Below are positions 2,623 to 42,788 of a DNA stretch of 45,321 nucleotides, piece by piece. The notes beneath the pieces are model-generated. The model did not search any database and was not told the DNA's origin. It saw only the letters and a list, made by a program, of their open reading frames with translations. A program made the position numbers and the translations under genes. How positions within the stretch are numbered: the stretch's first letter is position 1; each line of letters starts with the position of its first letter. This DNA comes from Escherichia phage AV129. The stretch is from the sequence record OR352959.1. One strand, written 5' to 3'.

Positions 2623-2936
2623 TTGAGGCGGCGCGACGCTTTTATGGCCCGCCGCCACCCTCTGAAGATTTAGCCGCAAGTTTATGGGGCGCGGCACCCG
2701 AAGATGTTTGTCCGCCTGTTGCGCTATGGCCCGATAACGCGAAGATAGTCGCAGTCTTCACAGATTGCGCCACGCAATGGCGCACCGGATTTGGTGGCGC
2801 ATACGGCATCGACTACGGCGTGCTGGAGTGGTTATTTAAGATGCACGGTATCGAAAACGAGCAGCGCGCGTTTAAAGATATCAAGCTAATGGAACGCATC
2901 GCGCTTGATGAAATGGCGCAGCAGAACCCCGCATAA
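2260..2936 (+). CDS. tail assembly chaperone frameshift fusion (lambda GT-like), needs -1 ribosomal frameshift
   Basis: The -1 frame is open from the slippery heptamer at 2613-2619 to TAA at 2934-2936 with no ATG start of its own, and its translation is protein-like (GIDYGVLEWLFKMHGIENEQRAF). Confidence 0.6.
2613..2619 (+). promoter_or_regulatory. -1 programmed frameshift slippery heptamer A_AAA_AAC
   Basis: Zero-frame codons GAA AAA AAC TAA; canonical X_XXY_YYZ heptamer immediately before the chaperone stop codon. Confidence 0.6.
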
Positions 2937-2938
2937 TG

Positions 2939-3256
2939 AAGCGGGACAAGCGGGACGTCCCGTTTTGTCCCGCCCCTGTGAAACCGCATACCTACTCACT
3001 TTCATTGCATAATCTAAAAGCGGGACAAGCGGGATGTCCCGTTTTGTCCCGCCCCACAAAAGTGCATACGTATTCAGTTTTATTGCATAAAACAAACGGG
3101 ACAGAAAGCGGGACAAACAAGGGGCGGGACAAAACGGGACAGCACCCCGTCCCCGCCAGTGCTGCCGCGGTTTTTAGCCGATCGGGACAGGCGGGACAAT
3201 CCCCAGTCTTTCAGACTAGACGGGGGGTCAGTGGCCCCCATCGTCTGAGACTGAAT
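2939..3256. repeat. CGGGACA iteron cluster with head-to-head palindromes and a long imperfect hairpin (copy 1 of a duplicated element)
   Basis: At least 12 GGGACA boxes; two near-identical palindromes GCGGGACAAGCGGGAC/GTCCCGTTTTGTCCCGC at 2941-2973 and 3021-3053; 3084-3256 is near-identical to 31893-32060. Confidence 0.7.
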
Positions 3257-3321
3257 AAGGTTTGTTTTGAAATCGCTGATACAATATCCATCGGCAACTG
3301 CATAAAAAAGGGGACTGCATA

Positions 3322-5964
3322 ATGGCAGATCAGGCAGCAGGCATCACGCTAAAGGCTGATGTTGCACAAATCAGAACGGCAAATACTGTGCTGGACTCCT
3401 TCGCACAGAAATCCGAGAACACAGAAAACAAGGTTAAGAAATTAAACGACACCCTCGGCAAGTCCAAAAAGGTGACGAGTGACGCCGCGGGCGGAATGGA
3501 AAAGCTGGCAAACGAATCGCAGCGCGCCGCCGATGGCATGACGAAACAGGAGAGACTCGCCAACAGGTTAGGGATGTCGACTAAAAACCTGGGCTTTGCC
3601 TCGCGTAACGCCGCATTCCAGCTACAGGATATTGCGGTAACGCTTGAGATGGGGATGCCGGTTCACCGCGTCATGCTTCAGCAGTTACCGCAGCTAACTG
3701 GGGCGTTCGGTGGACTGGGTAACACGCTGCGTTATGTTGCGGGCTTCCTCGGCCCAGTAGGGATCGGCCTCGCCGCCGTAACGGCAACGTTAGGCGTGGG
3801 CGTGGCAATTACGTCCCGCGCAGAGAACCAGGTCGCCGCGCTTAACAAGACGCTGGCGCTGTCAGGTAACATTTCCGGCCTCACTGCAAACCAGATCCTG
3901 GTGTTATCCGAGAACGCCGAGCGCATGGGCGGATCATTCCGCAAGACGCGTGACACAATCCAGGCGCTGGCGGCGGCGGGTGTGAAAGCGGGTGGTGACT
4001 TCGGCGCATTGGCTAAGGTAGTTAATGACTTTGCGAAGGTGTCCAGCCAGCCGATCGAGGATGTGGTCGCGGCGGTGGCGAAGCTGTCAACCGACCCGGT
4101 AGGCGGCTTACGGGCATTGGCGGATAAGTATCACGTCGTAAACGAAGCGCAGATCCAGCAGGTACAGTCGCTTGTGGATATGGGTCGCGAGACAGACGCG
4201 GTGGCGCTGGCTAACAAAACCGCCGCGGCGTCGTTCACCACTATGACCAACGATATTAAGTCCAACATGGGTACGCTTGAGCGTTCGATGAACGTCGTCA
4301 CATCGGCAGCTAAATCTATGTGGGATGCCATCCTGGATGTTGGGCGCGCGCAGTCATCGAATGAGTCCGAGATGAAAGCGCGTGAGTCATTGCAGCGGCT
4401 GACCACGGCTTACTATGCCGAGATGAAAGCGGTAAACGCTGCCGGTGGGGTGATGACCGAAGCGCAGAAAGCGCGTATTAACATGCTTTACAGCGAACTT
4501 GTCGCACAGGAGAAGGTGGTGGCGTCGCTCACCCTGCGCAACCGTGCTGAGCGGGAAAACGCCAGCGCCGCGGACGAAGCAGCAAAGGCGAACGAAGAGG
4601 CCAACCGTACCGCCCGCGACCGCGCTGCGTTTGAGAAGGAGTACGCAACAAACGCGAAGAGGCGAGCTGACGAGATCGCCCGCCTCAATTTGCTGAATAA
4701 GCGTGGCGTGATTGACGAGAAAGAACTTGCCGAGGCGGTGAAGCAGGTAAACGAGCGTTACAAAGACCCCGCCCCGAAGAAGGCCGCCGCTGTTCGAGTC
4801 GATGCCGGGCTGAAAATGCTGGAGGTCGCACGGAGCGAACTGGCACAGCTTCGAGAATCAGGCAAGCAGATCGAGGCCAACTCTTCGACGCAGACCAGAA
4901 CGCAACGCGCGCAAGCGGCCCTTAACAAGCTGATTGCCGACAACGAGCAGTTAATCGCTGCGAGCAAAGAAAGGGCGCTGACGGCAGCAGAGAAGCAGCA
5001 ATTAGTCGAGTTCGGGCGCGTGAAGGAAGTCCGCGAGCAGATCGTCGAAGAAGCCAAATTGCTGGACGCGAAAGAGAAGCAGGTCAAGGCGCACGCGCAG
5101 ATCGACGCCTTCGTTAAGAACCAGAACGCCGAGCTAAAAGCCACCGCGGCGGGCTATGCGCTTTCCACTCGCGAAGCGGCAAACCTGCGTGAAGAATTGC
5201 AGCTAATTGACCGCCTTAAGCGGGTGGGCGCTAGCGATACCGATATTGATCTGGCGGTGTCTAAGCTGCGCGAAGTGCAGGAAGCACAGACCGGTGCTAA
5301 CGCCTCGCTATGGGATGGCTTCAGCCGCGGGCTTAAGGATAGCGTGGATGAAATGGGTAACGGCTATACGCAGATGACGTCACTCACAAAATTCACGTTC
5401 GGCGCTATGCAGGACACGATGAACAAGTTTTTCGAGACTGGCAAGCTGAACGCAAAGGATATGGTTAAATCCATCCTTAGCGAATTAATCAAGCTGGCTA
5501 CATCGCAGGCGTTCAAGTCCATCGTTAGCGCTTTCGGCGGTGACGGCGGCAAAAACGGATTGTTCGGCGCTATCTTCTCTGGCCTCACTAAGAATGCGGA
5601 CGGCGGAGCGTACGCAGGAGGCAATCTCGCGGCCTATTCGGGGAAAGTGGTAAGCCAGCCTACCTTTTTCAGTTATGGCGTCCAGGCGTTCGCTAAGGGC
5701 GCAGGATTGATGGGTGAGGCCGGACCCGAAGCCATCATGCCACTGAAGCGCGGGCCGGACGGGAAACTGGGTGTTGCCGCGTCTGGCGCAGGCGGTGGTA
5801 TGGTCGTGACGACTAACGTTTACACGGGGTCCGGTAAAACAGATACCAGTGTCAGCGGGCCGGACCCCCGTACCGCGCAGGCGTTCGGCAAGCAAATCAC
5901 CGAAGCGGTGAAGGCCGAGATCGTGAAAGCGACGAAACCGGGTGGTGTACTTTACAAACGATGA
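3322..5964 (+). CDS. tail tape measure protein
   Basis: 880-aa ORF after the chaperone pair; long helical Ala/Gln/Lys-rich middle and Gly-rich C-terminal region typical of tape measure proteins. Confidence 0.85.
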   Translation: MADQAAGITLKADVAQIRTANTVLDSFAQKSENTENKVKKLNDTLGKSKKVTSDAAGGMEKLANESQRAADGMTKQERLANRLGMSTKNLGFASRNAAFQLQDIAVTLEMGMPVHRVMLQQLPQLTGAFGGLGNTLRYVAGFLGPVGIGLAAVTATLGVGVAITSRAENQVAALNKTLALSGNISGLTANQILVLSENAERMGGSFRKTRDTIQALAAAGVKAGGDFGALAKVVNDFAKVSSQPIEDVVAAVAKLSTDPVGGLRALADKYHVVNEAQIQQVQSLVDMGRETDAVALANKTAAASFTTMTNDIKSNMGTLERSMNVVTSAAKSMWDAILDVGRAQSSNESEMKARESLQRLTTAYYAEMKAVNAAGGVMTEAQKARINMLYSELVAQEKVVASLTLRNRAERENASAADEAAKANEEANRTARDRAAFEKEYATNAKRRADEIARLNLLNKRGVIDEKELAEAVKQVNERYKDPAPKKAAAVRVDAGLKMLEVARSELAQLRESGKQIEANSSTQTRTQRAQAALNKLIADNEQLIAASKERALTAAEKQQLVEFGRVKEVREQIVEEAKLLDAKEKQVKAHAQIDAFVKNQNAELKATAAGYALSTREAANLREELQLIDRLKRVGASDTDIDLAVSKLREVQEAQTGANASLWDGFSRGLKDSVDEMGNGYTQMTSLTKFTFGAMQDTMNKFFETGKLNAKDMVKSILSELIKLATSQAFKSIVSAFGGDGGKNGLFGAIFSGLTKNADGGAYAGGNLAAYSGKVVSQPTFFSYGVQAFAKGAGLMGEAGPEAIMPLKRGPDGKLGVAASGAGGGMVVTTNVYTGSGKTDTSVSGPDPRTAQAFGKQITEAVKAEIVKATKPGGVLYKR

Positions 5965-12179: not shown

Positions 12180-12186
12180 ATGCGAA

Positions 12187-12206
12187 GGGGCCATCCGGCC
12201 CCTTTT
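12187..12206 (+). terminator. rho-independent terminator at a convergent gene junction
   Basis: GGGGCC-atcc-GGCCCC hairpin followed by TTTT. Confidence 0.6.
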
Positions 12207-13179
12207 AATATATGTTAGGAATGACGAGTAACGGGGTTGGTACTGCAATATTTTTACCCGGCATTTGGAATTGTTGCCGTGAGTAGTTGCCAATGACGCG
12301 GTTTTTAGCTATGCGCACATTATTGCCCGCCATTCGTATACCGTTCATGCGTACGTGGTTATAGCCGCCGTTGTTCTCAATAAGCGCGCCGGTGTATGAA
12401 AGCTGGACCAGGCTGTTACCGATGTACTGATCGCCGCCGCCGATATTAATAAGGCGGTCATAAACAAACGGCTTATTCACAGTTGAGAACGTGACCTGAC
12501 CCTGGTTGTTTGTCATGGTGATGCCGTTCCCAGGGGTGGGCGGCGTATTGTTGAATATAACCAAGTCCATTTCAACAGCCGCGCCTACGTCGTCAATCCC
12601 ACCATAGGATGCATTACGGACGATAATACTTCCGCCATCGAAGCCGACAGACACGTTTCCGTCGTCCCAGCGCGCGAATGGGACACCGCCTACTGGTAAC
12701 GGCATACTTCCGTTCACCCACACGCGCTGCGCATATTGGCAGGTCATTAGCCTGGACACATTGGATATAGCGGTGAAGTCCGTCGAATTCGCCACCAGTA
12801 AGCCAGCGTTGCGCGATCCCACCGGCAGCACTTCCATAATCACCCCGCCCCATGATGGAAGCCCGCTATATGCGTTATACGCGTCCTCACCGCGCAAGGT
12901 GATTCCGCTATCCCCATTACGCTGTATTGACGTTATGTAAAACGGATCTGGCAAGACCAGTGTCTGGTCGAAGACTTCCATCACTTCAACGGGACTTGTT
13001 AGCACGACGACCAGATCTGACCCCGGCGTTAGCGGAGTGTTAATAGTTAGCGTCTTGTCAGACTGGCAGCGCTGATAGAATGATGTACAGAATGACGGCG
13101 CGCGTAGCCCAGCGGTTATCTCCATAACCGGTCGCCCGTCGTTGTAGTCGATAAGTATCCCAGCGCCCATTATTACCAC
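12205..13179 (-). CDS. putative tail-associated / receptor-binding beta-rich protein
   Basis: 324-aa Gly/Asn/Thr-rich ORF on the opposite strand between the J-like gene and the side fiber, translationally coupled to an upstream lipoprotein gene. Confidence 0.3.
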   Translation of the reverse strand: MVIMGAGILIDYNDGRPVMEITAGLRAPSFCTSFYQRCQSDKTLTINTPLTPGSDLVVVLTSPVEVMEVFDQTLVLPDPFYITSIQRNGDSGITLRGEDAYNAYSGLPSWGGVIMEVLPVGSRNAGLLVANSTDFTAISNVSRLMTCQYAQRVWVNGSMPLPVGGVPFARWDDGNVSVGFDGGSIIVRNASYGGIDDVGAAVEMDLVIFNNTPPTPGNGITMTNNQGQVTFSTVNKPFVYDRLINIGGGDQYIGNSLVQLSYTGALIENNGGYNHVRMNGIRMAGNNVRIAKNRVIGNYSRQQFQMPGKNIAVPTPLLVIPNIY

Positions 13180-13394: not shown

Positions 13395-13474
13395 GGTATC
13401 ATCTCCTATATTTGGTTGAGTTTTAGTATTACACCGCTCGATCAAGAATGCAACCAATTTACGAGGATTTAGCT

Positions 13475-15298
13475 ATGGCAGCGGGTACTCTATCCGTAAC
13501 GAATAACAGCAAGGCGGTTGTCGGGGTAGGCACGACGTTTACCGCGTTTAACGCTGGCGACTTCTTAACGCTGGTGGTAGGGCAAGTCCCCTACACTGTT
13601 GCTATCGCGTCAGTCGAAAGCGACACCGCGCTTACGCTGGTGCTGCCGTTCGACGGCCCCACGGCAACCGATCTCGCGTGGGATGGCGTTAAGCGCGATA
13701 CCATGTCACTGGCGACGATGGGCGTAACCGTACAGGCACAGAAAGCATTGCGCTTGATGATTGCAGATGAAAACAACTGGCGTGCAATCTTCGGCGACGC
13801 TGAAGAAATAACTGTGACGTTGCCTAACGGGCTGGTAATGCAGGGTATGTCATGGGGATATCTGTCGCAGTTGATGAAACAGGTCGACCCAGTTGAGATG
13901 CGCAACCTGCAACAGCAAGCCGCCGCATCTGAAGCAGCCGCGCAGGGATACCGGAACGAGGCCGAAGGCTTCAAGACCGAGACGGCGGGCATTCGCGACG
14001 CCACCAATCAGATTAAGGCGGATACGCAGGCGATCCACGACGCCACTAATACCATCAAGACGCAGACTGACCAGATTAAGACTGATACTCAGGCCATCAA
14101 GGACCAGACGAACCAGATCAAGACTGACACCGGCGTTATTCGTGACGAAGCCAATATGGCGAAGGCGGACGCGCAAGCCGCCAGCACTGCCGCGGAGGGA
14201 TTTCGCGACCAGGCCGAGGAATGGGCGCAAAGCGTTAACGCGGATAACCTGCTAACCAAATCCGGCAACCTCGCGGGGCTTGCGGACAAAGGTGCGTCGT
14301 GGGCTAACCTCATGCCGTCCGGCCCGCTTCGAGTAGGCGCTGATCCCGTCGACAATCTGGACGCTGCGACTAGAGGATGGGTGTGGCGCGGTCTTGATGA
14401 CGTGGGGGTGTGGGCCTTACGCAATAACTATGCTTCGGAACCCGCTGGCGGCGCAGAAGTATACGGCGGTCGCTTCGACTCATCTGCGAACGTCGCAGGG
14501 GCCGAAAAATACAGAATGTCGCTGCAACTTCAGGGATTTAATAACGTAGACGCCTGGACACGTTTGGTTACCGCGAACGTCCGCAGCATGGAGAACGCGG
14601 CGACGTGGGACTTTAAGTACGATGGTAAGTTGCTTTTCAACAAAGGATTGGTCCCCACGTCCGCCACGGCGTCGCCGGGTAATACCTACGTCACCCTTGC
14701 GAATACCTGGTATAACGGCCAATACTCGGGCCACGTCGGCTTTGTTGGGGGCGGGGTGGGGACGAGTGGTGGCGGGTGGCGTAACTTTATTTCGTTCGGA
14801 GCGCTGATCCACACGGAGGCCGGTAACTCACACCCCCACGCTATGATTTCGCAGGTCTTTGACTATGATTTGGCGTCGGGGGTACAGCCCAACGGCGATA
14901 TCGTTCGAAACACAACATTCAACCCCGAAGCATATGATATTACCTTCGGCAACAACTCAGGGACTGTTAACTATATTTTCGCAAAGTCACCAGTATCCGA
15001 TAGGGCGCTGAAGCATGATATCGCCAGGATCGATACTCAAGTTGCGTACGATAACGTTATGGCGATGGAATACTCTTCCTTTGTTTATAACTACGACAAA
15101 AAGGAGACGGTCAGACGTGGTTTTATCGCGCAGCAGTTGGAAGAGATCGACCCGCAGTATGTTCGTAAGTACGCCGACGCAACGGGTAAAGAGTTTCTGG
15201 CATTAGATGAAAACGTCCTGTTACTTGACCTTGTCGCGACTGTTCAGCATTTGGCGGCGAAGGTTGAGGCGTTAGAAAGTAAGTTAGCGGAGAAATGA
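13475..15298 (+). CDS. side tail fiber with C-terminal intramolecular chaperone (peptidase S74-like)
   Basis: Nine heptad-like repeats (xIKxDTQ type) in the shaft; C-terminal SDRALKHDIARID...LESKLAEK resembles self-cleaving fiber chaperone domains; ATG at 13475 with gagga RBS. Confidence 0.7.
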   Translation: MAAGTLSVTNNSKAVVGVGTTFTAFNAGDFLTLVVGQVPYTVAIASVESDTALTLVLPFDGPTATDLAWDGVKRDTMSLATMGVTVQAQKALRLMIADENNWRAIFGDAEEITVTLPNGLVMQGMSWGYLSQLMKQVDPVEMRNLQQQAAASEAAAQGYRNEAEGFKTETAGIRDATNQIKADTQAIHDATNTIKTQTDQIKTDTQAIKDQTNQIKTDTGVIRDEANMAKADAQAASTAAEGFRDQAEEWAQSVNADNLLTKSGNLAGLADKGASWANLMPSGPLRVGADPVDNLDAATRGWVWRGLDDVGVWALRNNYASEPAGGAEVYGGRFDSSANVAGAEKYRMSLQLQGFNNVDAWTRLVTANVRSMENAATWDFKYDGKLLFNKGLVPTSATASPGNTYVTLANTWYNGQYSGHVGFVGGGVGTSGGGWRNFISFGALIHTEAGNSHPHAMISQVFDYDLASGVQPNGDIVRNTTFNPEAYDITFGNNSGTVNYIFAKSPVSDRALKHDIARIDTQVAYDNVMAMEYSSFVYNYDKKETVRRGFIAQQLEEIDPQYVRKYADATGKEFLALDENVLLLDLVATVQHLAAKVEALESKLAEK

Positions 15299-15304
15299 GA
15301 ATAA

Positions 15305-15328
15305 GGGGCCATACGGCCCCTTTTTTTT
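15305..15328 (+). terminator. rho-independent terminator
   Basis: GGGGCC-atac-GGCCCC hairpin followed by T8. Confidence 0.7.
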
Positions 15329-15944: not shown

Positions 15945-16616
15945 TTATTTAAGTGCGCCAGTCACCAGTGTTTTTTCCATGTTACGGAAATCTTCCTGCG
16001 TCATGAGGATTTTCGATCCGTCTTCGCCGGTGAGCACGACCATAGGCTGTCCGTCCTGGGCTACAACTCCAAAATCGCGGGCCTTAACAGTCTTGCTGAA
16101 CGAGGCTACCGTGTCCTCTGCAACGCGAATTGCGCTGTTATACGCATTAATTTCACCGTCGAGACGCACGGACAGGTCCGAAGGTTTGAACGCGCCGCCT
16201 GTCTTGATAGGCCAACCCTTGAGGCTGTCGAATTGCGCTGCCGTTGTATCGATCTGAATCTCGTCATGCACGGTCATGTAAGACTCGCCCAGCAGGGCGG
16301 CATACGCCACCAGATCCACGATGTTATCTTCCTGGTGCTTACGGTGCTGGCGCACCAGCTTCAGGCAGATCAAGAAGGTCCAGGCTTCTTGCTCGGTAAG
16401 GTCGCGACCGGTAAGCGCGTTAAACACGGCGGCGATTTGTTTAGCACTGCGCTCCTCTTTCTCGTTGTCATAGCCGTTTTCTTTTCCGCGCTGTTCCATA
16501 GTGGTGGCGGCGTTTTTGCAGTATTCGTATGCTTTCACAGTATTACCCTTTTTTAGCGAGGGGGCTGTACTGCCCCCGACACGTTTACTATAGTGCAACC
16601 AACCTATTGGTTGCAA
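15945..16616 (-). CDS. hypothetical protein
   Basis: 223-aa ORF with protein-like composition; start uncertain (internal ATG at 16499). Confidence 0.4.
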   Translation of the reverse strand: MQPIGWLHYSKRVGGSTAPSLKKGNTVKAYEYCKNAATTMEQRGKENGYDNEKEERSAKQIAAVFNALTGRDLTEQEAWTFLICLKLVRQHRKHQEDNIVDLVAYAALLGESYMTVHDEIQIDTTAAQFDSLKGWPIKTGGAFKPSDLSVRLDGEINAYNSAIRVAEDTVASFSKTVKARDFGVVAQDGQPMVVLTGEDGSKILMTQEDFRNMEKTLVTGALK

Positions 16617-18455: not shown

Positions 18456-18536
18456 CGTGTTGTCTCCAGGTATTAAAAAGGGCGTCCAAACCGGACACCC
18501 TCAATATAATGCAACCAATATGATTATGCAACCAAT

Positions 18537-21735: not shown

Positions 21736-21968
21736 TTGGTCTGCAACTCCACGTTACGCAGACGAAGGTCTACCGGTATATCCGACCGGCCGGTTAGTGC
21801 CAGCGCCAGGTTTTCAGGCGTGACGAGTGCCGTAATGGTCTTGCCACGTTCCAGTCTAATGACGATTCTAATCTCGTCATTGTCCGTCGCGCCAGCGCGC
21901 ATAATGCTCATTTCTGCTTTCATAATCTTACTTCCTGTACCTGTACATAATGTCGCCTTCGGCGGCAA
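21732..21968 (-). CDS. hypothetical protein
   Basis: Small ORF immediately downstream of the polymerase gene; start uncertain. Confidence 0.3.
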   Translation of the reverse strand: MPPKATLCTGTGSKIMKAEMSIMRAGATDNDEIRIVIRLERGKTITALVTPENLALALTGRSDIPVDLRLRNVELQTK

Positions 21969-24900
21969 GTGGGAAGCCTTTCGCCCAAATAGGCAGGTCG
22001 CACATCAGCGCGCAAAGCTCCTCGGTCGTGTAGTCGTCGGTGTCCGGCACTTCTGTGATCAATTCGTCGTGTACTGACAGGACGATTTCATACCCCGCAG
22101 CTTCAACGCCAGGCATGGACCATGCGAGAATATCGCGACACAACGCCTGTACGATGTTCTCCGTCAGTTTGCCGCCGTAGGTATACTGGAATCCCCACTG
22201 GCGCGTCGTCTGATTCTCGCCCTGATATTTAATGCGTGTGCTGGTGCGCTTCTTGCCGGTGTCTTCGTCAATCTCGGTAGTGACAGACAGCGCGATGCCG
22301 GGGTAGCTCATGATGCGCCCCGACGGCAACTCAATTTTCAACCACCACCCAGCGGCGTTCGGGTCGTCGCGCTCCTCGTCAAAGGTTGGGTCGTGCTTCG
22401 CCTTCGTACGGACAATCTTGAGCGCTTTTCTACCGTCCGGGCGAACGTTCGCGCCAGCCCAGTATGCTTTACCAGGATTGCGGATTGCACACAACACCGC
22501 GTCCTCAAGCTCTGCCCAAAAGGCTACCGTCTTCGGGTGAGCCTCACGCCACATACGTTTGATCGCGTCACAGGTAAGCCATACGTTTTTCGGCAGTAAG
22601 TAGGTTGGGCGCTCGTCCTTCTTGCCGGGCTTCGGCGGGCGCTTCGCTTCGTTAATGCGAGCGTACTCATAACCACGTTTCGCCGCCGCCCAAATGTGAT
22701 CCGGGAACGTGCCTTTCATGACGTCAGCCATAGTGTAAAGGTCGAGGCCCAGGTTTTTAGCGAACTGCAAGAACGCCGCGACGCCGCCACCGTAGCCCAG
22801 ACCAAGCTCGCAGTTATGCGCCACCAGAAAACCAGACTTAGACGCAATAAGGAACCGGTTTCCGTCTTCCACATCAATCAGGTCGTAAACCGGCTCGCAA
22901 TAGGTTAACTTCCCGTTCCAGTTCAGCAATGCGGGTAAGGGCTTCATCGTACTTTCGCTGAAGCTCGGGCACGCTGCGCCGGTTACGGCAGTTTTCCGAA
23001 CGGCTGACAAACCGAAGGTTTCCAGGCTCATAGTTGCCGTCTGTATCGATCCGGTCCATTTCGAAGTCTGGCTTATCCCAGCCGTCCAGCGTTTGAACGT
23101 AGAGAAGAAACGACCTTTTATCTCTCTTCCATTCGTCACATACGGCAATCCCACGACCGCCGTAGTTTTTATACCCTTTAGCGCGGGGGTTTGCCGTTCG
23201 TGATATTGCCGCTGACAGCCGGTTGAGCAGCCGCGTTCTGTGCGCATCGTCTGGCATTGCGTCATCGTAGCAAAAATACTGTTTACGATACCGCTTTGTC
23301 GCTTCAATTGCGCAGAGGTTGCATTGGGATGTTTTACCCCTTCGGACGTTGTCATACCCGACGCGTCCTGGCATCGCTCCGCAATCACATTGGGCCAGCA
23401 GTTGTCTGTGCCCCTGTCGTTTTGGTAATTCGCGCAGGATAACCAGGCGTCCATACCTCTCGCCAGGGCGCGGACCATCGTGCACCTGTCTGAAACGAGT
23501 TGCCTTGCCTCCTTCCATGAATGCGTCAAGATTTTGTGGTCTTCTGTCATCAAGACCCCGTCCACGTCTATCACTGGTTTCCACCCCATAAGGTGCGCGC
23601 CTTTTGTACTCACCCATTTTTCGCCGTTCCATACTTTATCCGTTGATGTTACGGCCATAATATCCTTGAACCCGCCATTGGTCAATACTTGGGTATGGCG
23701 GTGCAAGCAAGCCTTCCCTATCTGGCGTAAATCCTTGCGGTTGGCTTTGATGTAATCCGGGTCAAGGCCAAACATCTTACCGGCAGTTTCACAATAGATA
23801 TCGCGACCGGCCTTAAACACCATTAGCGCGGTTTTCTCGCCTGCGGTCCAGGCAAGTCCACGCCCTTCCACGTTGGAGTAGTCCGCTACGACAAACTTCT
23901 TGCCCTTAGCCGGGATAATGCACCCGCGAACGGTCGAGGCTGTTAGCTTAGATATGTCATACGCCCAGTGCGCGGTCCCGCGTAACAGGGAATTGATGCC
24001 GTTGGTGAGCATGTGCGACCGGACCCAAAAAGCAACGTCGCTCTCGCCTTCGCGGCGCTTAATCTTCCCTTCGTGATCGTCGCTATACTCGCCGCGTGCC
24101 AGGTTTTGAGGCTGGAAGCCTTTACCCGCCCAGCGCAGCGTGCGCTTTGCGCCACCATACTGAAGACACCCACGGCGGCGACCATCTGCGGATAAGCCGT
24201 TAACTAACGGATTGTACTTAGTCGATGCCGTTGATGACGCACCGAGGCGCATTTCGATAAGCGCTTTGCCTTCGTCGGGGAAGTCCGGGTCTTCAAGCAG
24301 GTCGTTAAGTGTGGATTTCTGCGCGTTGTGGATTGTGAACGCAGGCGCGAGGTCGCGCAGCGCTGGCAGGAAGTCATTGCCGGTCAGCTTACCGCCGAAG
24401 CGCTCCCATGCTTCTTCCTTCAATTCTTCCTTATGCGCCTGCACCGCTTTGATCGCGGCGTTCGCCAGGTCAACGTCCACATAGAAGCCGCGGTCATTGA
24501 TCAACTGGTCAATAAGCAGGATTTCGTCTTCCTTCGGCGTGTTACCCCAGTCCGGTATGCGCCAGTAGACTTCCCTCATCGCTATAATATCCAGTGCGGC
24601 ATAGCGCAGGAATTTAGCCCATTCCTCGGGGTGCGTCTCGCGCGTATAGCGACGGATTTTGTAGGTCTTAGGGGTGGGCTTACAGAATCGTTTGATCAGC
24701 GCCTTGCCAGCCTTATCCTTCGCGTGCTCTGCGTCGACGCCCAACACCTGGCACTGCATATCGAGGCTACCCGGCAGCGCGTGTCGAAAGGCCATAATCA
24801 TGGTGTCTTCGATCTGGACTACCGGCAGGTCAATGCCCCACTTCTCGCGAATAACCAGGCGGTCAAACAGGAGGCCGTTAGCCATCACGATTTTTGCTTT

Positions 24901-25116
24901 CTTGCGGGATACCCGGCGGAGCGCCTTGCGCAGTTCACGCGGCATTGTGGGGGACTCGGTGCAATCCCATGTCTGCACGCGGCCCTCGTCGATGGCGTAT
25001 GTGCAAATCATAATCTCGGTAGTTGGGTGTTCCGCGTAGGCGTACGCCCCAACTTTCTTCAGGTCCACCCCGCTAAATGTCTCGGTGTCGAGAAACAGGC
25101 GTTCGAAGTCTTTCAT
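21928..25116 (-). CDS. DNA polymerase, family A with 3'-5' exonuclease domain, intein-containing
   Basis: Exo motif FLDTETFSG, motif A ADYSNVEGR, motif B split as RQIGKA / CELGLGYGGG around a ~299-codon insertion; C-terminal VHDE motif C. Confidence 0.85.
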   Translation of the reverse strand: MKDFERLFLDTETFSGVDLKKVGAYAYAEHPTTEIMICTYAIDEGRVQTWDCTESPTMPRELRKALRRVSRKKAKIVMANGLLFDRLVIREKWGIDLPVVQIEDTMIMAFRHALPGSLDMQCQVLGVDAEHAKDKAGKALIKRFCKPTPKTYKIRRYTRETHPEEWAKFLRYAALDIIAMREVYWRIPDWGNTPKEDEILLIDQLINDRGFYVDVDLANAAIKAVQAHKEELKEEAWERFGGKLTGNDFLPALRDLAPAFTIHNAQKSTLNDLLEDPDFPDEGKALIEMRLGASSTASTKYNPLVNGLSADGRRRGCLQYGGAKRTLRWAGKGFQPQNLARGEYSDDHEGKIKRREGESDVAFWVRSHMLTNGINSLLRGTAHWAYDISKLTASTVRGCIIPAKGKKFVVADYSNVEGRGLAWTAGEKTALMVFKAGRDIYCETAGKMFGLDPDYIKANRKDLRQIGKACLHRHTQVLTNGGFKDIMAVTSTDKVWNGEKWVSTKGAHLMGWKPVIDVDGVLMTEDHKILTHSWKEARQLVSDRCTMVRALARGMDAWLSCANYQNDRGTDNCWPNVIAERCQDASGMTTSEGVKHPNATSAQLKRQSGIVNSIFATMTQCQTMRTERGCSTGCQRQYHERQTPALKGIKTTAVVGLPYVTNGREIKGRFFSTFKRWTAGISQTSKWTGSIQTATMSLETFGLSAVRKTAVTGAACPSFSESTMKPLPALLNWNGKLTYCEPVYDLIDVEDGNRFLIASKSGFLVAHNCELGLGYGGGVAAFLQFAKNLGLDLYTMADVMKGTFPDHIWAAAKRGYEYARINEAKRPPKPGKKDERPTYLLPKNVWLTCDAIKRMWREAHPKTVAFWAELEDAVLCAIRNPGKAYWAGANVRPDGRKALKIVRTKAKHDPTFDEERDDPNAAGWWLKIELPSGRIMSYPGIALSVTTEIDEDTGKKRTSTRIKYQGENQTTRQWGFQYTYGGKLTENIVQALCRDILAWSMPGVEAAGYEIVLSVHDELITEVPDTDDYTTEELCALMCDLPIWAKGFPLAAEGDIMYRYRK
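22813..23709 (-). other. intein inserted in polymerase motif B
   Basis: Insertion starts with Cys (CLHRHTQVL), has block B-like VLMTEDHKILT, ends YDLIDVEDGNRFLIASKSGFLVAHN followed by +1 Cys. Confidence 0.7.
22874..23632 (-). CDS. HNH homing endonuclease, nested in the intein in a different reading frame
   Basis: Zinc-finger-like QCDCGA...SQCNLC, then YKNYGGRGIAVCDEW and DRIDTDGNYEPGNLRFVSRSEN; frame differs from the polymerase frame; likely start near 23518 (MEGGKATRF). Confidence 0.75.
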   Translation of the reverse strand: MERRKMGEYKRRAPYGVETSDRRGRGLDDRRPQNLDAFMEGGKATRFRQVHDGPRPGERYGRLVILRELPKRQGHRQLLAQCDCGAMPGRVGYDNVRRGKTSQCNLCAIEATKRYRKQYFCYDDAMPDDAHRTRLLNRLSAAISRTANPRAKGYKNYGGRGIAVCDEWKRDKRSFLLYVQTLDGWDKPDFEMDRIDTDGNYEPGNLRFVSRSENCRNRRSVPELQRKYDEALTRIAELEREVNLLRAGLRPD

Positions 25117-26064: not shown

Positions 26065-26154
26065 TTTCCAATTCCTCATTTTCACATGTATCGGGGTTAT
26101 TGGAAGCCACCCCGTTCGGCTTGGTTGCTAATTTACTTGGTTGCGCCTAAGCGG

Positions 26155-28308: not shown

Positions 28309-28737
28309 TTAGTCTTCCAGTTCGAAATAGGTTTCGACGATTTCTTTTAGCTCTTTGTGGAAGTCTTCGACGTCGTCATCTTCCAGCTTGGCGATTGATT
28401 TGATCTCGAACGATTCCAGCAGGTCGTCGAATTCGTCGTTCGCATCGTCGTCGTCACCACCGGCAATAATCGCGGCATACTGTTTGATCTCGTCGCGCAT
28501 CTCTGCCAGCGGATCGGCATCTTTCTTACCTTTGCCTTTCGCCGGTGCTTTTTTAGCTTTAGCCGGTTTTTCGTCTTCGGCTTCATCGTCGCCATCTTCG
28601 ACAACTTCTTTTTTGGCCTTAGACGGCTTCTTGTCGTCCTGCTTACCAACGGCAGCGCCAACGGTTTCATAATGCTTTGCGATGGTTTCCAGTGCTACTA
28701 CGCCGCGAGTGATCAGGTTTACGATTTGCTCAAACAT
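28309..28737 (-). CDS. highly acidic early protein (possible host-takeover / DNA mimic)
   Basis: Start MFEQIV (ATG at 28737) with GGAGA RBS; Lys-rich linker then Asp/Glu-rich C-terminus; first gene of the leftward early transcript. Confidence 0.4.
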   Translation of the reverse strand: MFEQIVNLITRGVVALETIAKHYETVGAAVGKQDDKKPSKAKKEVVEDGDDEAEDEKPAKAKKAPAKGKGKKDADPLAEMRDEIKQYAAIIAGGDDDDANDEFDDLLESFEIKSIAKLEDDDVEDFHKELKEIVETYFELED

Positions 28738-29138: not shown

Positions 29139-29468
29139 ATGAATGTAAACGACGCAATCGAAATGTTAACGAAGACTGTTAGCAGTGAAACAAGCCGGTC
29201 ATGGGCTTATACCGATGCCGTGGGGGCGGTGTTATTTGAAATCGAACGACTGCGGCTTACCGAAAAAGAATTGCGCGCGAAGCTGGAATTACTCAACGGT
29301 ACGGCAGCCAGCAAGCTGCAAAAGCACAATGAAGAAATGGAAGAATACAAAAAGCAGGTTATCCGTTTGCGCAATGAGGGAAAGTCATGGGCAATGATCG
29401 CCGAGTTGACCGGAATTAATCAGAGCACAGTGCGCTCCTGGGTACGCAATAATAAAACTTCAAAGTAA
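29139..29468 (+). CDS. HTH DNA-binding regulator
   Basis: C-terminal GKSWAMIAELTGINQSTVRSWV helix-turn-helix; first gene of the rightward early operon. Confidence 0.55.
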   Translation: MNVNDAIEMLTKTVSSETSRSWAYTDAVGAVLFEIERLRLTEKELRAKLELLNGTAASKLQKHNEEMEEYKKQVIRLRNEGKSWAMIAELTGINQSTVRSWVRNNKTSK

Positions 29469-29478
29469 GGCAACGGCA

Positions 29479-31743
29479 ATGAGCTTGATTAAATTCGCTG
29501 TAACACGACCCGCTAAAAAAGGCGAAAAAGCCAGGGCGGAAAACTTCCAGATGACTACCGAAGAGTTTTTCGAATTTATCAAAGATGCGAAAGAAATCTC
29601 CTCGGTGCATATCAACAAGACGGAAGATAAAGCCGAGTATGCGCGCCGCAAGCGTAAGGCCGATGGTATCGTGGCTTATACCAGTGATGGGCTGCGCCGC
29701 AAGACCAGTGCCGTGGACCGTTCGATCCTGTTCTTCGATATCGACCGTACCGACACCCGCACCCTGCGCCGCTGCCGTAAGGCGTTCATCGACGCGGGAC
29801 TGGAGCACGTCTTCCACACCACAACCGGCGACCGCCACCCGCTGAAAGGCGGCACGCGTTGCGCTCGTTTCCTGGTGCTCACTGACAAGCCTGTACCGGC
29901 AGAAGACCTGGGCCGCGTCCAGTATGCACTATTACACCAACTGGGTCTGTCAGATGTGGACTTCGACGATTGTACTAAAGACACAAACCGCCTTATGTAC
30001 CTGCCACACCAGCAGTCTGTTATTAAATGCCATTACGGCAAACGTGCCCGCGTCCGTCGTCTGCTTCGCCTGGCGGATAAGCTGGGAGTGGAAAAAGAGG
30101 AAGTACGCCGCGAACTAACCCAGGGCGATGACGGCGTGGCGGACGGTATTCTGGATTGGTGCTTCCAGGCAGGATTCGAACCGCTGTCGTCCGGTCGTGG
30201 CTATGAAGTGCCATGCCCGAACGAACACCTGCACAGTGGTGAAGGGTCCACCGCTATCATGGTTAAGGATGGCGAGATCCGTTTCAAGTGTATGCACACC
30301 GGCAACGAGTGCTGTTCCGAACTGAACAGACACCAGCACCTGGCGCTACGTCTTATCGGGATCCCGGACCACTTGAACGTCGAACCGCACAACATGTCAC
30401 GTAAGCAAATCGCCGCCATCCTTCCGGGACTGGACGATGAGGAAGTGGAATCGTGCTATGCGCATATCGTTGACGCGGTTGGCGACGGCGAAGAATATGG
30501 CGTGTGCACCGATGCGGATCTGGATAACGAGCCGGTTGCGCTGTTCAGTAAGCACGACCCGATCATCGAGGGGTTGATTAACTTTAAATCGACCTGGTAT
30601 ATGGCGGGCGAGTCGAACATCGGTAAATCGTTCTACGTGCTGGGGCAAATGGGCGCTGTTGCCGCCGGTATTCCGTTCGGTGGTGCGAAGGTTGTCCAGT
30701 CGCATTGCTTCTATTTCGATGCGGAAGGTGGCGAAGCCTCCAACCAGCGTAAGGAAGCATTGCAGATCAAATATGAGCACGACCTCGACAAGCTGCACAT
30801 TATCGACCTGCAATCACGCGGCTGGGATATCACCAGCAAGTCAGGATTGCGTGAAGTTATCAGCTTCATCAACCGCACCGCTAACGGCGAACCGGTTGGC
30901 CTGGTGGCGTTCGACTCACTCAACCAGACTGTTGCGTTGCGGTCCGCCGATGCTAAACCGTTCGACGAGAACAACGCCAGCGATATGGGCGAAGTGGTCA
31001 AAGCGCTGAAGGCCATCGCGGAAAATACAGGCGGCAGTGCGGGAGTCATCCACCACCCGGCGAAAGGTGCAAACGGCAGCAGATCCCCCCGCGGGTCCGG
31101 CGCGCTGCATGGTGCTGTTGATTCGGCGTTCTTCCTTGAGCAACCGGACGACAACCAACCAGGCCAATTGAACCTGTATCACGAAAAGGCACGTAACGGC
31201 ATCAAGCAAGCGCCGCGCGGATTCGTCCTGCTCAAGTGCAAGGTTAAGGTGGATCTCCGCAAGTCCGAGGCGTTCGAAGCCCACCAGTCCACCAGCACCG
31301 GGCCGGACTTCGGCGATGTGGTTGCCGGTTGGGACGTCAAGCCAATTGCATCCACGCCACGCGACGAGACTCTTTACCTCGTACCGGTCGCCCTGGCACC
31401 GTTCGCCATTGAGCAGGCGAAGTCCGCGGGCAAAGCAGCAGTTAAAGAAGAGAACACTGCCGGACCGCGCAACGAAAAAGAGAAAGTGCTTTATGCGGCA
31501 CTGGAAAAACTGATGGAAGATAACCCGGACCATACCGGATTCAGTAAATCGGCAATTGTCCGCCAGGCTGGATTGGCAAAAGGAGGAACATCGACGAAGG
31601 CAATCGACGATATGGTCGAGCGCGGAGTGTTAGGTTTTTATACCGATCCGCACACCGGGGCCATCTATGGGTCGTCGAATATCGTCATAAAAACGAATAT
31701 ACCCATCACGCTTTCGGCGACCGACGACGACTTAAAAGATTAA
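29479..31743 (+). CDS. DNA primase-polymerase / helicase
   Basis: N-terminal prim-pol-like region (FFDIDRTD) and RecA-like NTPase with Walker A GESNIGKS. Confidence 0.8.
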   Translation: MSLIKFAVTRPAKKGEKARAENFQMTTEEFFEFIKDAKEISSVHINKTEDKAEYARRKRKADGIVAYTSDGLRRKTSAVDRSILFFDIDRTDTRTLRRCRKAFIDAGLEHVFHTTTGDRHPLKGGTRCARFLVLTDKPVPAEDLGRVQYALLHQLGLSDVDFDDCTKDTNRLMYLPHQQSVIKCHYGKRARVRRLLRLADKLGVEKEEVRRELTQGDDGVADGILDWCFQAGFEPLSSGRGYEVPCPNEHLHSGEGSTAIMVKDGEIRFKCMHTGNECCSELNRHQHLALRLIGIPDHLNVEPHNMSRKQIAAILPGLDDEEVESCYAHIVDAVGDGEEYGVCTDADLDNEPVALFSKHDPIIEGLINFKSTWYMAGESNIGKSFYVLGQMGAVAAGIPFGGAKVVQSHCFYFDAEGGEASNQRKEALQIKYEHDLDKLHIIDLQSRGWDITSKSGLREVISFINRTANGEPVGLVAFDSLNQTVALRSADAKPFDENNASDMGEVVKALKAIAENTGGSAGVIHHPAKGANGSRSPRGSGALHGAVDSAFFLEQPDDNQPGQLNLYHEKARNGIKQAPRGFVLLKCKVKVDLRKSEAFEAHQSTSTGPDFGDVVAGWDVKPIASTPRDETLYLVPVALAPFAIEQAKSAGKAAVKEENTAGPRNEKEKVLYAALEKLMEDNPDHTGFSKSAIVRQAGLAKGGTSTKAIDDMVERGVLGFYTDPHTGAIYGSSNIVIKTNIPITLSATDDDLKD

Positions 31744-32275
31744 ATTTTGCGCGCATTGGTTGCCGATATGGGAATTCCCATATCGCTAAAAGATTAATTT
31801 GTGCGCGCATTGGTTGCCATTTTGAGTGTTTTTATCTGGTCGTATTGGTTGCCGTGTAGCGTAGACGCAATGAATAGTTATGCAGATTTCGTGCATAAAC
31901 CAAACGGGACAGAAAGCGGGACAAACAAGGGGCGGGACAAAACGGGACAGCACCCCCGTCCCGCCCCGGATGGCGCGGCCTGGAGAGGCGCGGGACAAGC
32001 GGGACAAACCCCAGTCTTTCAGACTAGACGGGGGTCAACGGCCCCCCTCGTCTGAGACTGCATAAAATCCGGGATTGCAAAATACACGGCAGCATGTTGC
32101 GGATTGCGGTCGTCACTGGACTAGGCAACCAATGCGAGTTGCTGAATGGTGGGTAGAAAATGCAGTTTGCAGTTGCAGCAGATAGCGATCAACTTTTTCA
32201 TGCGCGTGATTAATATTGGTTGCATTCACCCCGGCACCTTGCTATATTGGTTGCGCACCAACAGGAGGGCGGAAC
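31744..32275. repeat. repeat-rich ori-like intergenic region (contains copy 2 of the iteron/hairpin element)
   Basis: 532 bp non-coding: 22-nt direct repeat x2, 22-bp perfect palindrome at 31764-31785, GGGACA iterons and long hairpin at 31893-32060, several TTGGTTGC boxes. Confidence 0.55.
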
Positions 32276-32455
32276 ATGAAAACCGAAATGGTTAACAAGC
32301 GCGAAATCAAGATCGGCGATACGGTAGTCCACAACGGGGAGCTTCGCACTGTGTGCAAGCGAGCGTTTAGCATTGATGAATTTATGGGCCTGCTACTTTG
32401 GGGCGACAGCTATCGTTTAGGGTGTAAACTGGTTGAGAGGGTTACGGAACTATGA
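32276..32455 (+). CDS. hypothetical protein
   Basis: ATG at 32276 preceded by AGGAGGG; 59 aa. Confidence 0.35.
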   Translation: MKTEMVNKREIKIGDTVVHNGELRTVCKRAFSIDEFMGLLLWGDSYRLGCKLVERVTEL

Positions 32456-35650: not shown

Positions 35651-36793
35651 ATGCACCCGCAAACTAAAATCACCGACGAGCAATTGATCGCCGAGTTGCA
35701 ATCCGGCACTACCGCGAAAGAGATTGCGAAGAAGTACGGCCTTTCCCTACGAAATGTCTACATGCGCAAAGCCCGCCTGTCGAAGAAAGGTATTGGTCAC
35801 GGTAACGATGCCGTAATTCGTAAGCGCGTTGCCGATGGCTTCGGTGTTAAGCGCGTATCCGCCCTGGTGCGCGGCAATGGCGAAGAGGTCATGTCGTGGG
35901 TTATCACTGAGCAGGACAAAGAGCGCCAGCTTGAAGCAATGCGCGCCGTTGTCGAAGGTATGAACAGCGAAATCACTCCGGCAGCACCAGTAAGCGCCCC
36001 GCCTGTCCCGATCCAGGCGCTCGACCTACTCAACCTGTACACCGTGTCCGACTTCCACCTGGGCATGTTGGCCTGGGGAGAGGAGACTGGAGAAGACTGG
36101 GATATGGCGATTGCCGAAGACCTGTTCCACCGCTGGTTTGTCGAAGCCTTCGCACGCGCACCGGACGCAGGCACTGCCGTAATTAATATCCTCGGTGATA
36201 TGGCGCACTTTGATAGCCTTGACGCCGTCACACCGGCAAGTGGTCACGTACTGGACGCGGATACACGCTACCAGAAGCTGGTCCGCTACATGATTCGCAT
36301 GGTGCGCAACGTGGTAGAACTGGCGCTGCAAAAACACCACAAAGTCAAACTGCTAATCGTCCAGGGGAATCATGACGAGTCTGGCATGATTTGGCTGGCT
36401 GAAATGTTCAATACCCTGTACGAGAACGAGCCGCGTGTCGATGTGGATACGTCCCCGGACGTATACAAAATGGTGCAACACGGCAAGACCACGCTATTCT
36501 TCCACCACGGGCATAAGGCACGTTTTGACGCTATTGAAACCGTCATGATTTCAAAATTCAGACAAGCGTTCGGATCCAGCGAGTATAGCTACGCGCATGT
36601 AGGCCACTTGCACCACCAGAAGATTGTAGAATCCCGCAACATGATTGTTGAACAGCACCGGACCCTCGCAGCGAAAGACGCATATGCCAGCCGCGGCGGT
36701 TGGATGTCCGGTCGTAGCGCCAACGTCATCACCTATAGCGCCAACTACGGCGAAGTAGCGCGCTTAACCATTAGCCCGGAAATGTTGAAATGA
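35651..36793 (+). CDS. HTH-domain metallophosphoesterase
   Basis: N-terminal HTH-like TAKEIAKKYGLSLRNV; metallophosphatase motifs GDMAHFD, GNHDE, HHGH, GHLHH. Confidence 0.55.
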   Translation: MHPQTKITDEQLIAELQSGTTAKEIAKKYGLSLRNVYMRKARLSKKGIGHGNDAVIRKRVADGFGVKRVSALVRGNGEEVMSWVITEQDKERQLEAMRAVVEGMNSEITPAAPVSAPPVPIQALDLLNLYTVSDFHLGMLAWGEETGEDWDMAIAEDLFHRWFVEAFARAPDAGTAVINILGDMAHFDSLDAVTPASGHVLDADTRYQKLVRYMIRMVRNVVELALQKHHKVKLLIVQGNHDESGMIWLAEMFNTLYENEPRVDVDTSPDVYKMVQHGKTTLFFHHGHKARFDAIETVMISKFRQAFGSSEYSYAHVGHLHHQKIVESRNMIVEQHRTLAAKDAYASRGGWMSGRSANVITYSANYGEVARLTISPEMLK

Positions 36794-42646: not shown

Positions 42647-42788
42647 TTCCTCGTTGTTGGTGTGCAACCAATATATGCAACCAATACGCGGATTGCAAGC
42701 GAATTTTGCGATTATTTTTATCACTGATAATATTAGAGGCGTGAAGTCGAGCGGGTGGCCCGCTCTGCCACAATCCCAGGGGGATAGC

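Follow-up and report, generated by a model that had tools for sequence, protein, structure and literature searches.

In staphylococcal pathogenicity islands (SaPI elements), the iteron origin reportedly lies directly 3′ of the gene for a helicase-type initiator, with iterons and specificity varying together, as described by Ubeda and co-workers in 2007. The P4 iteron is said to occupy two cis regions kilobases apart; one of them (crr) reportedly lies beside the alpha gene, and both are reportedly needed, according to the studies of Flensburg and Calendar in 1987 and of Ziegelin and co-workers in 1993 and 1995. The alpha protein of satellite phage P4 comprises a primase, a helicase and a C-terminal winged helix that binds the origin repeats (PMC4234260, PMC2777425). 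ORF904 of the archaeal plasmid pRN1 combines prim-pol, helicase and winged helix; the pRN1 origin is located directly 3′ of the gene and requires an intact stem-loop, and immediately upstream the operon also encodes a small DNA-binding protein (PMC4234260). The oriV of the IncQ plasmid RSF1010 employs RepC iterons, the RepA helicase and the single-strand initiation hairpins ssiA and ssiB, which are used by the RepB′ primase (PMC4234260). The present analysis concerns two related non-coding regions, A and B, in a stretch of 45,321 nucleotides (nt) of DNA of Escherichia phage AV129 (record OR352959.1), referred to here as the window. Each region carries short CGGGACA boxes and a hairpin, and the two are probably DNA-level replication-origin modules of the iteron-plus-hairpin kind.

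BLAST comparisons of the tail region and of the helicase region assign the window to an HK578/SO-1-like coliphage of the genus Dhillonvirus. Dhillonviruses are virulent coliphages with genomes of about 45 kb, common in collections such as BASEL and in phage-therapy screens. The repeats have been noticed previously. In the consulted part of GenBank record GQ502199 (2009) of Sodalis phage SO-1, the same two loci are annotated as repeat_region features, ‘region A’ and ‘region B’, with direct, inverted and palindromic repeats, mutual similarity between A and B, and a role introduced as ‘possible’. Elsewhere in GenBank, parts of A carry the label ‘terminator’ or ‘repeat_region’. The searchable literature on Dhillonvirus, HK578 and SO-1 contains no treatment of the repeats beyond the GenBank notes, and no analysis of the function of A and B or of their distribution outside the genus; the functional reading is added here. 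No mapped origins were found in the literature searched, either for Dhillonviruses or for phages with RepA-like primase–helicases generally.

Architecture of regions A and B

The gap between the genes of tail assembly chaperone T (2245–2936, + strand; stop codon at 2934–2936) and the tape measure protein (3322–5964, + strand; ATG at 3322) is 385 nt long. It is occupied by region A (2937–3321, + strand), a non-coding insert that contains the second copy of the shared module and two extra palindromic box clusters. Region B (31744–32275, + strand) is intergenic and begins directly after the stop codon of the primase–helicase gene (29479–31743, + strand; 754 aa), whose product is the proposed origin-recognition protein. 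The module common to both regions is about 180 nt long and consists of four tandem CGGGACA boxes, an inverted box, two more boxes and a hairpin of about 50 nt. The copies at 3063–3239 and 31871–32047 align without gaps at 82% identity, and the longest identical run is 56 nt (3093–3148 and 31901–31956). A and B are separated by 28.8 kb in the layout of the window, or by 16.5 kb the opposite way if the genome is circular or concatemeric, and both modules share the orientation of the surrounding + strand transcription.

The CGGGACA box occurs 20 times in the window, with 6.4 occurrences expected and a count of 20 reached in none of 100 shuffles; 17 of the 20 sites lie within A (11) and B (6). The GGGAC pentamer is found 15 times in A (39 per kb) and seven times in B (13 per kb), as against 1 per kb elsewhere. 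The sequence-only reading had drawn attention to the length of the gap, to at least 12 GGGACA boxes in it, to two near-identical palindromes, four tandem boxes and a hairpin of about 50 nt, and to a second copy after the primase–helicase gene. All of these were borne out by the measurements given here.

Region A starts with two palindromic box clusters (2941–2973 and 3020–3052; like the spacers, the dyad and the hairpins, these are assigned to neither strand), the second located 79 nt downstream of the first, with repeat units (2939–2976 and 3018–3055) that are 97% identical. Cluster 1 contains two direct and two inverted GGGAC boxes and, as a DNA hairpin, has a folding energy of −13.7 kcal/mol (z = −4.9). 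An A+T-rich spacer at 2977–3016 (GC content 0.375), ending in TGCATAA, is a candidate unwinding segment. A second A+T-rich spacer with a TGCATAA motif (3057–3096, GC content 0.275) forms the start of the shared module. These 40-nt windows of GC content 0.275–0.375, which flank the box clusters, are short; the genome as a whole has 0.545. The four tandem CGGGACA iterons of copy A (3097–3141, + strand) have spacings of 12, 16 and 10 nt, and the array is closed by an inverted GTCCC box (3149–3153, − strand). Two CGGGACA boxes 9 nt apart (3183–3198, + strand) directly precede the imperfect hairpin (3204–3253), which has a G5/C5 core and a folding energy of −13.5 kcal/mol as DNA (z = −2.9).

In region B, two 32-nt direct repeats, 54 nt apart and each ending in the motif TTGGTTGC, span positions 31733–31818 (+ strand). 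Dhillonvirus genomes (B loci L054–L070) have either one copy or two of this repeat, which lies just after the stop codon of the helicase gene, and the hairpin anchor is offset by exactly 54 nt between the two genome groups. A dyad TTATGCA-N7-TGCATAA (31878–31898) lies just upstream of the B boxes, which comprise four tandem CGGGACA iterons (31905–31949, + strand), an inverted box (31958–31962, − strand) and two boxes 9 nt apart (31991–32006, + strand). The hairpin of copy B (32012–32060) has a folding energy of −13.3 kcal/mol as DNA (z = −3.6), and both hairpins fold well in single-stranded form on either strand (z about −3). The direct repeats characteristic of an iteron origin are present in both copies, as the four tandem boxes and as the 9-nt pair.

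Linkage of the box arrays to primase–helicase genes

The IMG/VR database was searched with the exact 16-mer of two boxes, CGGGACAAAACGGGAC, as the sole query. This search found box arrays in 21 unrelated loci outside Dhillonvirus. In 16 of them an open reading frame (ORF) of an AAA_25 helicase overlaps the array or terminates no more than about 50 nt from it, and three of the remaining five are truncated at the boundary of the stored locus. The array-linked helicases are about 25% identical to the Dhillonvirus protein; despite this, the architecture of the array is common to Dhillonvirus and the distant loci. In the latter, three to nine direct GGGACA boxes with a period of about 10 nt are followed by a palindrome and then by inverted boxes. 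The palindromes have a short loop and are usually G+C-rich, as in GGGGGCCCCTC-AAA-GAGGGGGGCCCC and C11-TAAA-G9.

A triple-box pattern, run against one genome per bacterial species, matched at least 120 loci in many phyla, where about 0.5 would be expected by chance. Clustering of the flanking ORFs among the matches listed yielded one real family, the primase–helicase, with 21 ORFs in 20 loci; the array is located at the 3′ end of 19 of these 21 ORFs. No conserved small neighbour protein that might serve as an alternative binder was found across 30 helicase–array loci. An array at the 3′ end of the candidate initiator gene is therefore a property of Dhillonvirus, of 16 of the 21 viral loci and of the 20 bacterial-genome loci listed. 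Since an unbiased search with the boxes alone leads to the helicase, the arrays are read as an origin tied to the primase–helicase. The sequence-only reading had listed replication origins separately from binding arrays of a phage DNA-binding protein; both options are supported by arrays that abut the 3′ end of distant primase–helicase genes, and they merge into one.

The primase modules of the GGGACA-linked helicases vary and include Prim-Pol, Toprim with a Zn ribbon and BT4734-like_N, while the helicase and the C-terminal part are constant. As the primase domain varies and the boxes stay, specificity apparently does not reside in the primase. The helicase of Cornellvirus is 44% identical to that of Dhillonvirus and is followed by a homologous region with GGGGAGA boxes and a G+C-rich hairpin; the Cornellvirus genome has one array only. 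Fifty-odd more distant helicases (L071–L132) possess a different winged-helix-like C-terminus, and the 600 nt that follow the gene contain a repeated 8-mer peculiar to each subfamily, such as CTATGATC in ten copies or CCCTTACC in four. Several lineages having their own arrays, the arrangement of a helicase gene followed by iterons seems to be general, though not universal. The repeats are specific to subfamilies, yet GGGACA is also found beside helicases whose C-terminal homology to the Dhillonvirus protein is undetectable.

In G+C-rich contigs, the arrays are open in one frame and have been absorbed into long ORFs (L046:4112–4458; L052:594–900; L029:4362–4464). They encode peptide repeats such as SGTNGTSGT and GTSGTSGT, and helicase C-termini may be mis-annotated as extended.

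Structure of the primase–helicase

The primase–helicase consists of an AEP PrimPol-like N-terminus, a zinc motif and a central AAA_25/RepA-like helicase, and it belongs to phrog_3228, ‘replicative helicase-primase’. A winged-helix domain is predicted at residues ~666–739 (31474–31695, + strand). AlphaFold2 modelling of the last 165 residues with a 32-sequence alignment gave the order helix–strand–helix–helix–strand–wing–strand for these residues, with a pLDDT of about 80–89. All Foldseek matches of the C-terminal model were winged-helix DNA binders (MarR/MepR, histone H1, LexA, ORC), and they were weak (E ≥ 7e-3). The first protein search with the C-terminal fragment alone gave one partial match. 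The model of the N-terminal 350 residues (pLDDT 83.8) matches the AEP domain of cyanophage S-2L PrimPol (E = 4.7e-6). For the whole protein, the best sequence match in the PDB is RSF1010 RepA (1g8y), a weak one (E = 0.46).

Conservation and history of the two regions

Region A was matched by BLAST in about 158 records, and 156 records contain the helicase at 80% identity or more. The third BLAST match place per record was taken as the palindromes aligning on the opposite strand. Region A occupies a fixed position in every Dhillonvirus record and is lost in none of the 158, which answers the question of its presence in relatives raised by the sequence-only reading. That reading also called the gap unusual for this gene pair, and rightly so: in a phage with 43% identity in the major tail protein (L150), the chaperone stop codon adjoins the tape measure start and no gap exists (L150:3936–3938). 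At 60% identity (L148), the gap contains unrelated − strand genes and no boxes (L148:3944–4838), while relatives at 75–92% identity (L146, L139) carry region A. An extra − strand ORF lies beside region A in L146 (L146:3968–4795). Within this clade, the chaperone/tape measure junction is a hot spot for insertions.

A comparison of column identity across 15 genomes gave a mean of 0.86 for region A, 0.94 for its boxes, 0.93 for the hairpin and about 0.9 for the 3′ part of the module; the third codon positions of the flanking genes have 0.73–0.80. The two leading palindromic units of A are conserved no better than third codon positions. The four tandem iterons are invariant across 33 module copies, and the hairpin arms are near-invariant in both copies and in all genomes. 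Copies of A group with A orthologues and copies of B with B, each with its own conserved 26-nt spacer. Given that these copy-specific spacers are kept, both regions evolve as orthologous loci. In u050407, the genome that diverges most, the A copy resembles the B copy of the same genome more than any other, which indicates some gene conversion or co-evolution.

Some assemblies are linearised inside region A, at about 3150–3250 (the end of LR990702.1, the start of NC_073059.1 and the end of OX460974.1), and other Dhillonvirus assemblies start within a few hundred bases of it. Assembly breaks at a two-copy repeat are the likely explanation of the linearisation inside A, the alternative being a physical end.

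Coding capacity of region A

In the window, an ORF of 128 aa (2936–3322) takes up precisely the length of the gap and overlaps its neighbours on either side in a TAATG. Its translation is unlike a protein and has no Pfam or PHROG match, and none of the 17 other Dhillonvirus genomes checked, with gaps of 382–406 nt, keeps the frame intact. Being open here only and without a family match, it is a chance open frame, and the region is non-coding, as the sequence-only reading had assumed; the ORF was rejected as a real gene. It is liable to mistaken annotation by gene callers.

Alternative explanations

Both modules lie inside + strand transcription units, and proteins with a helix–turn–helix (HTH) are encoded nearby, so the arrays could be operators of a separate phage regulator controlling transcription, not replication. 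The binder would then be a 109-aa HTH protein (29139–29468) or an HTH-phosphoesterase (35651–36793); region A would throttle read-through from the chaperone to the tape measure gene, and region B would regulate the downstream operon. The dyad TTATGCA-N7-TGCATAA and the repeated TGCATAA motifs that accompany the boxes agree with this, as does the label ‘terminator’ given to part of A in several GenBank records. Beside the distant arrays, however, there is no homologue of either HTH protein, the helicase alone being found there, and the arrays are located at the helicase 3′ end, sometimes overlapping the gene, and not at promoters. Scans for promoters and terminators found no promoter or intrinsic terminator on the + strand of A or B; the terminator-scan matches are on the − strand, where the apparent ‘T run’ is the next box. 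An intrinsic terminator was rejected, the + strand palindromes having no T run after them. An operator function is thus quite unlikely. It is also unlikely that only B works and that A is a neutral or selfish duplicate of the origin, produced by recombination or gene conversion and harmless in a permissive site. Such an origin of A fits the insertion hot spot with its extra ORF in L146 and unrelated genes in L148, the gene conversion indicated by the similarity of A to its own B in u050407, the leading palindromic units that are no better conserved than synonymous sites, and the ability of Cornellvirus to manage with a single array. Conservation of the module part of A (3097–3321) nevertheless clearly exceeds that of synonymous sites; its boxes and hairpin hardly vary in any genome, even in relatives at 66–75% protein identity, and A has kept its specific spacer and has been lost in none of the records.

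The module might also act as RNA, either as a cis element in two mRNAs (for processing or stabilisation, or as an antiterminator like HK022 put) or as a small RNA. The stability of the hairpin and the orientation of both copies along the surrounding transcription could be so explained, and the inner stem tolerates a T–G pair on the + strand while the loop bases vary freely. Against this, Rfam gave no matches in the whole window at the gathering score, so that membership of a structured RNA family is not indicated, and relaxed scans gave only sub-threshold microRNA hairpin models on both strands. A tRNA/tmRNA scan returned nothing meaningful. The hairpin folds equally well on the − strand, its stems are invariant with no covariation signal, no promoter or intrinsic terminator brackets the module, and inverted box arrays placed symmetrically around a perfect palindrome are a design of duplex DNA. 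The small structured RNA considered in the sequence-only reading is therefore very unlikely. The same reading had named a mobile insert resembling a miniature inverted-repeat transposable element (MITE), which would have spread into two sites; a non-coding, repeat-rich element in two copies, one of them oddly placed, invites this explanation. No terminal inverted repeats or target-site duplication were found at A or B, both positions are fixed across the genus, searches of 5,426 E. coli genomes and 72,556 plasmids gave no match to the module, and beyond Dhillonvirus the element is always accompanied by the helicase gene. A MITE or other small mobile element, at two fixed sites and with no such hallmarks, was rejected as most improbable.

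Proposed mode of action

Regions A and B are thus best regarded as probable origin modules. Several points weigh against this assignment. That the primase–helicase binds the arrays and initiates there is something we infer from linkage, architecture and conservation of the sequences. The predicted winged helix of the Dhillonvirus protein, compared with those of the other GGGACA-linked helicases, gave E = 0.15 by HMM and, by hhalign, P = 0.016 with a probability of 2.9% in the expected register; homology of this domain is not established, and the occurrence of the same box beside such divergent proteins is consequently unexplained. Scans of A and B found no DnaA boxes and no 13-mer-type repeats. 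Cumulative GC skew, with its minimum at 28662 and its maximum at 15308, follows the direction of transcription and marks neither A nor B. About 100 of the 120 bacterial-genome loci listed have no detectable helicase in the stored flank, and the Jerseyvirus and Kagunavirus relatives (32–35% identity) have no array after the helicase gene. Some of the triple-box loci represent another repeat: on seven contigs (L223–L229) of one Phycisphaerae metagenome-assembled genome, with no helicase nearby, the pattern belongs to a different genome-wide repeat containing the same boxes. Covariation in the hairpin gave no signal among 19 distinct sequences and is uninformative because the stems are near-invariant. 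One apparent A–T to G–C compensatory change in the A copy of u050407 (u050407_A) was seen by eye and is absent from the alignment-based result. The data also fit region A equally well as a second origin, a helper site or a protein titrator.

If A and B are origin modules, the primase–helicase would bind the boxes, probably via its predicted winged helix, and would oligomerise on the array. The adjacent A+T-rich or palindromic DNA could then be melted by the protein, and loading or priming might take place at the extruded hairpin, as at the RSF1010 ssi hairpins or the pRN1 stem-loop. For each of these proposed steps, P4, pRN1 or RSF1010 offers a precedent with experimental support (PMC4234260, PMC2777425). 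Region B, directly after the helicase stop codon, would represent the ancestral origin, and region A a duplicate confined to Dhillonvirus and inserted at a permissive junction within the tail operon. The duplicate may have been kept by selection as a second origin or as a distant cis partner of B, in the manner of P4 crr and ori.

A broader proposal can be put forward tentatively. GGGACA-iteron-plus-palindrome arrays may constitute an undescribed but widespread class of origins that accompany RepA-like primase–helicases in many phyla, with Dhillonviruses possessing a two-site version in which A either pairs with B, like P4 ori and crr, or acts as a late origin by way of transcription of the late operon. 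A late origin of this kind would couple DNA replication to tail gene expression.

Significance

The regions offer a concrete candidate for experiments: the box is short, the hairpin is defined and only one protein is a candidate binder. Widely diverged helicases of many phyla are accompanied by the same design, so that a single experiment would serve to annotate the origins of numerous genomes. With region A placed in the tail operon, the question arises of whether a small virulent phage has two origins or a pair resembling ori and crr. If either is the case, the chaperone/tape measure junction would not be a neutral insertion site for phage engineering. Two aspects merit experimental work, namely how widely the GGGACA design is distributed and its arrangement at two sites in Dhillonviruses.

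Other features of the genome

Tail assembly chaperone G (2245–2622, + strand; Phage_TAC_4) shares its start with chaperone T, a −1 frameshift extension of G with a DUF1799 domain; the slippery heptamer A_AAA_AAC of this frameshift is located at 2613–2619. The gene of the 109-aa HTH protein (HTH_23/Sigma70_r4-like; labelled ‘transposase’ in PHROGs) ends 10 nt upstream of the primase–helicase gene, and its product is a candidate regulator of the replication operon.

The ORF of the family A DNA polymerase (21928–25116, − strand) encodes 1062 aa here, compared with 763 aa in HK578. A distant homologue aligns to residues 7–468 and 849–1062 only, and a nested ORF is present at 22874–23632. In the SO-1 record, the polymerase insert is a group I intron with an internal ORF. 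The polymerase frame of the window is open throughout, so that an intein is equally possible as a group I intron. Terminator-like hairpins AAGGGGCCATCCGGCCCCTTTT at 12185–12206 and 15303–15324, 95% identical, bracket the ORFs at 12205–13179 (− strand) and 13448–15298 (+ strand) and look like a cassette boundary.

The motif TTGGTTGC is over-represented in the window (20 observed, 1.8 expected) and probably represents a phage promoter or regulator motif. Examples are found at 13450, 16595–16614, 18511–18535, 26121–26144, 28942, 31756 and 31810, and further sites at 31845, 32125, 32216, 32247, 35456 and 42664–42684. Most copies appear to be intergenic and are often paired or palindromic, and six flank region B. 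A promoter-like TTGCAT-N17-TATATT before the gene at 32276 is overlapped by a pair of copies 31 nt apart (32216 and 32247). The motif is also present in relatives L146 and L148.

Comparison with known replication systems

The P4 system resembles that of the Dhillonviruses in uniting primase, helicase and winged helix (a predicted one in Dhillonvirus) in one polypeptide and in the two-site layout of short iterons. It differs in the type of initiator, alpha being a DnaG/Toprim-type primase with an SF3 helicase, whereas in the Dhillonvirus protein an AEP fold is joined to a RecA-like AAA_25 helicase. Neither A nor B contains the type I iteron of P4, TGTTCACC. A hairpin element is lacking in P4, and the two sites described here are 28.8 kb apart, with one of them in a late operon. 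Homology to P4 ori/crr was rejected on account of the different initiator and the missing TGTTCACC; the resemblance is functional only.

The position of the proposed origin, with its stem-loop, downstream of a gene for prim-pol, helicase and predicted winged helix is shared with pRN1, and the comparison extends to Bordetella phage BIP-1. The 109-aa HTH gene and the primase–helicase gene have the same layout as the pRN1 pair of the orf56 repressor and orf904. The pRN1 protein, however, contains an SF3 helicase and the plasmid has a single origin without iterons (PMC2777425, PMC4234260), while in the regions analysed here iterons dominate and the hairpin is about 50 nt long.

RSF1010 is similar in the placement of iterons beside short hairpins and in its RepA-type AAA_25 helicase. 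Its functions, in contrast, are divided among three proteins, one ssi site lies on each strand where the hairpins of A and B have the same orientation, and its iterons are unlike the CGGGACA boxes in length and sequence. The SaPI pri–rep–ori region employs another helicase family and has a single origin, in which the iterons flank an A+T-rich centre instead of a G+C-rich hairpin; its likeness to the system described here is that the iterons lie 3′ of the helicase-type gene and differ by lineage, as they do in Dhillonvirus, Cornellvirus and the other subfamilies.

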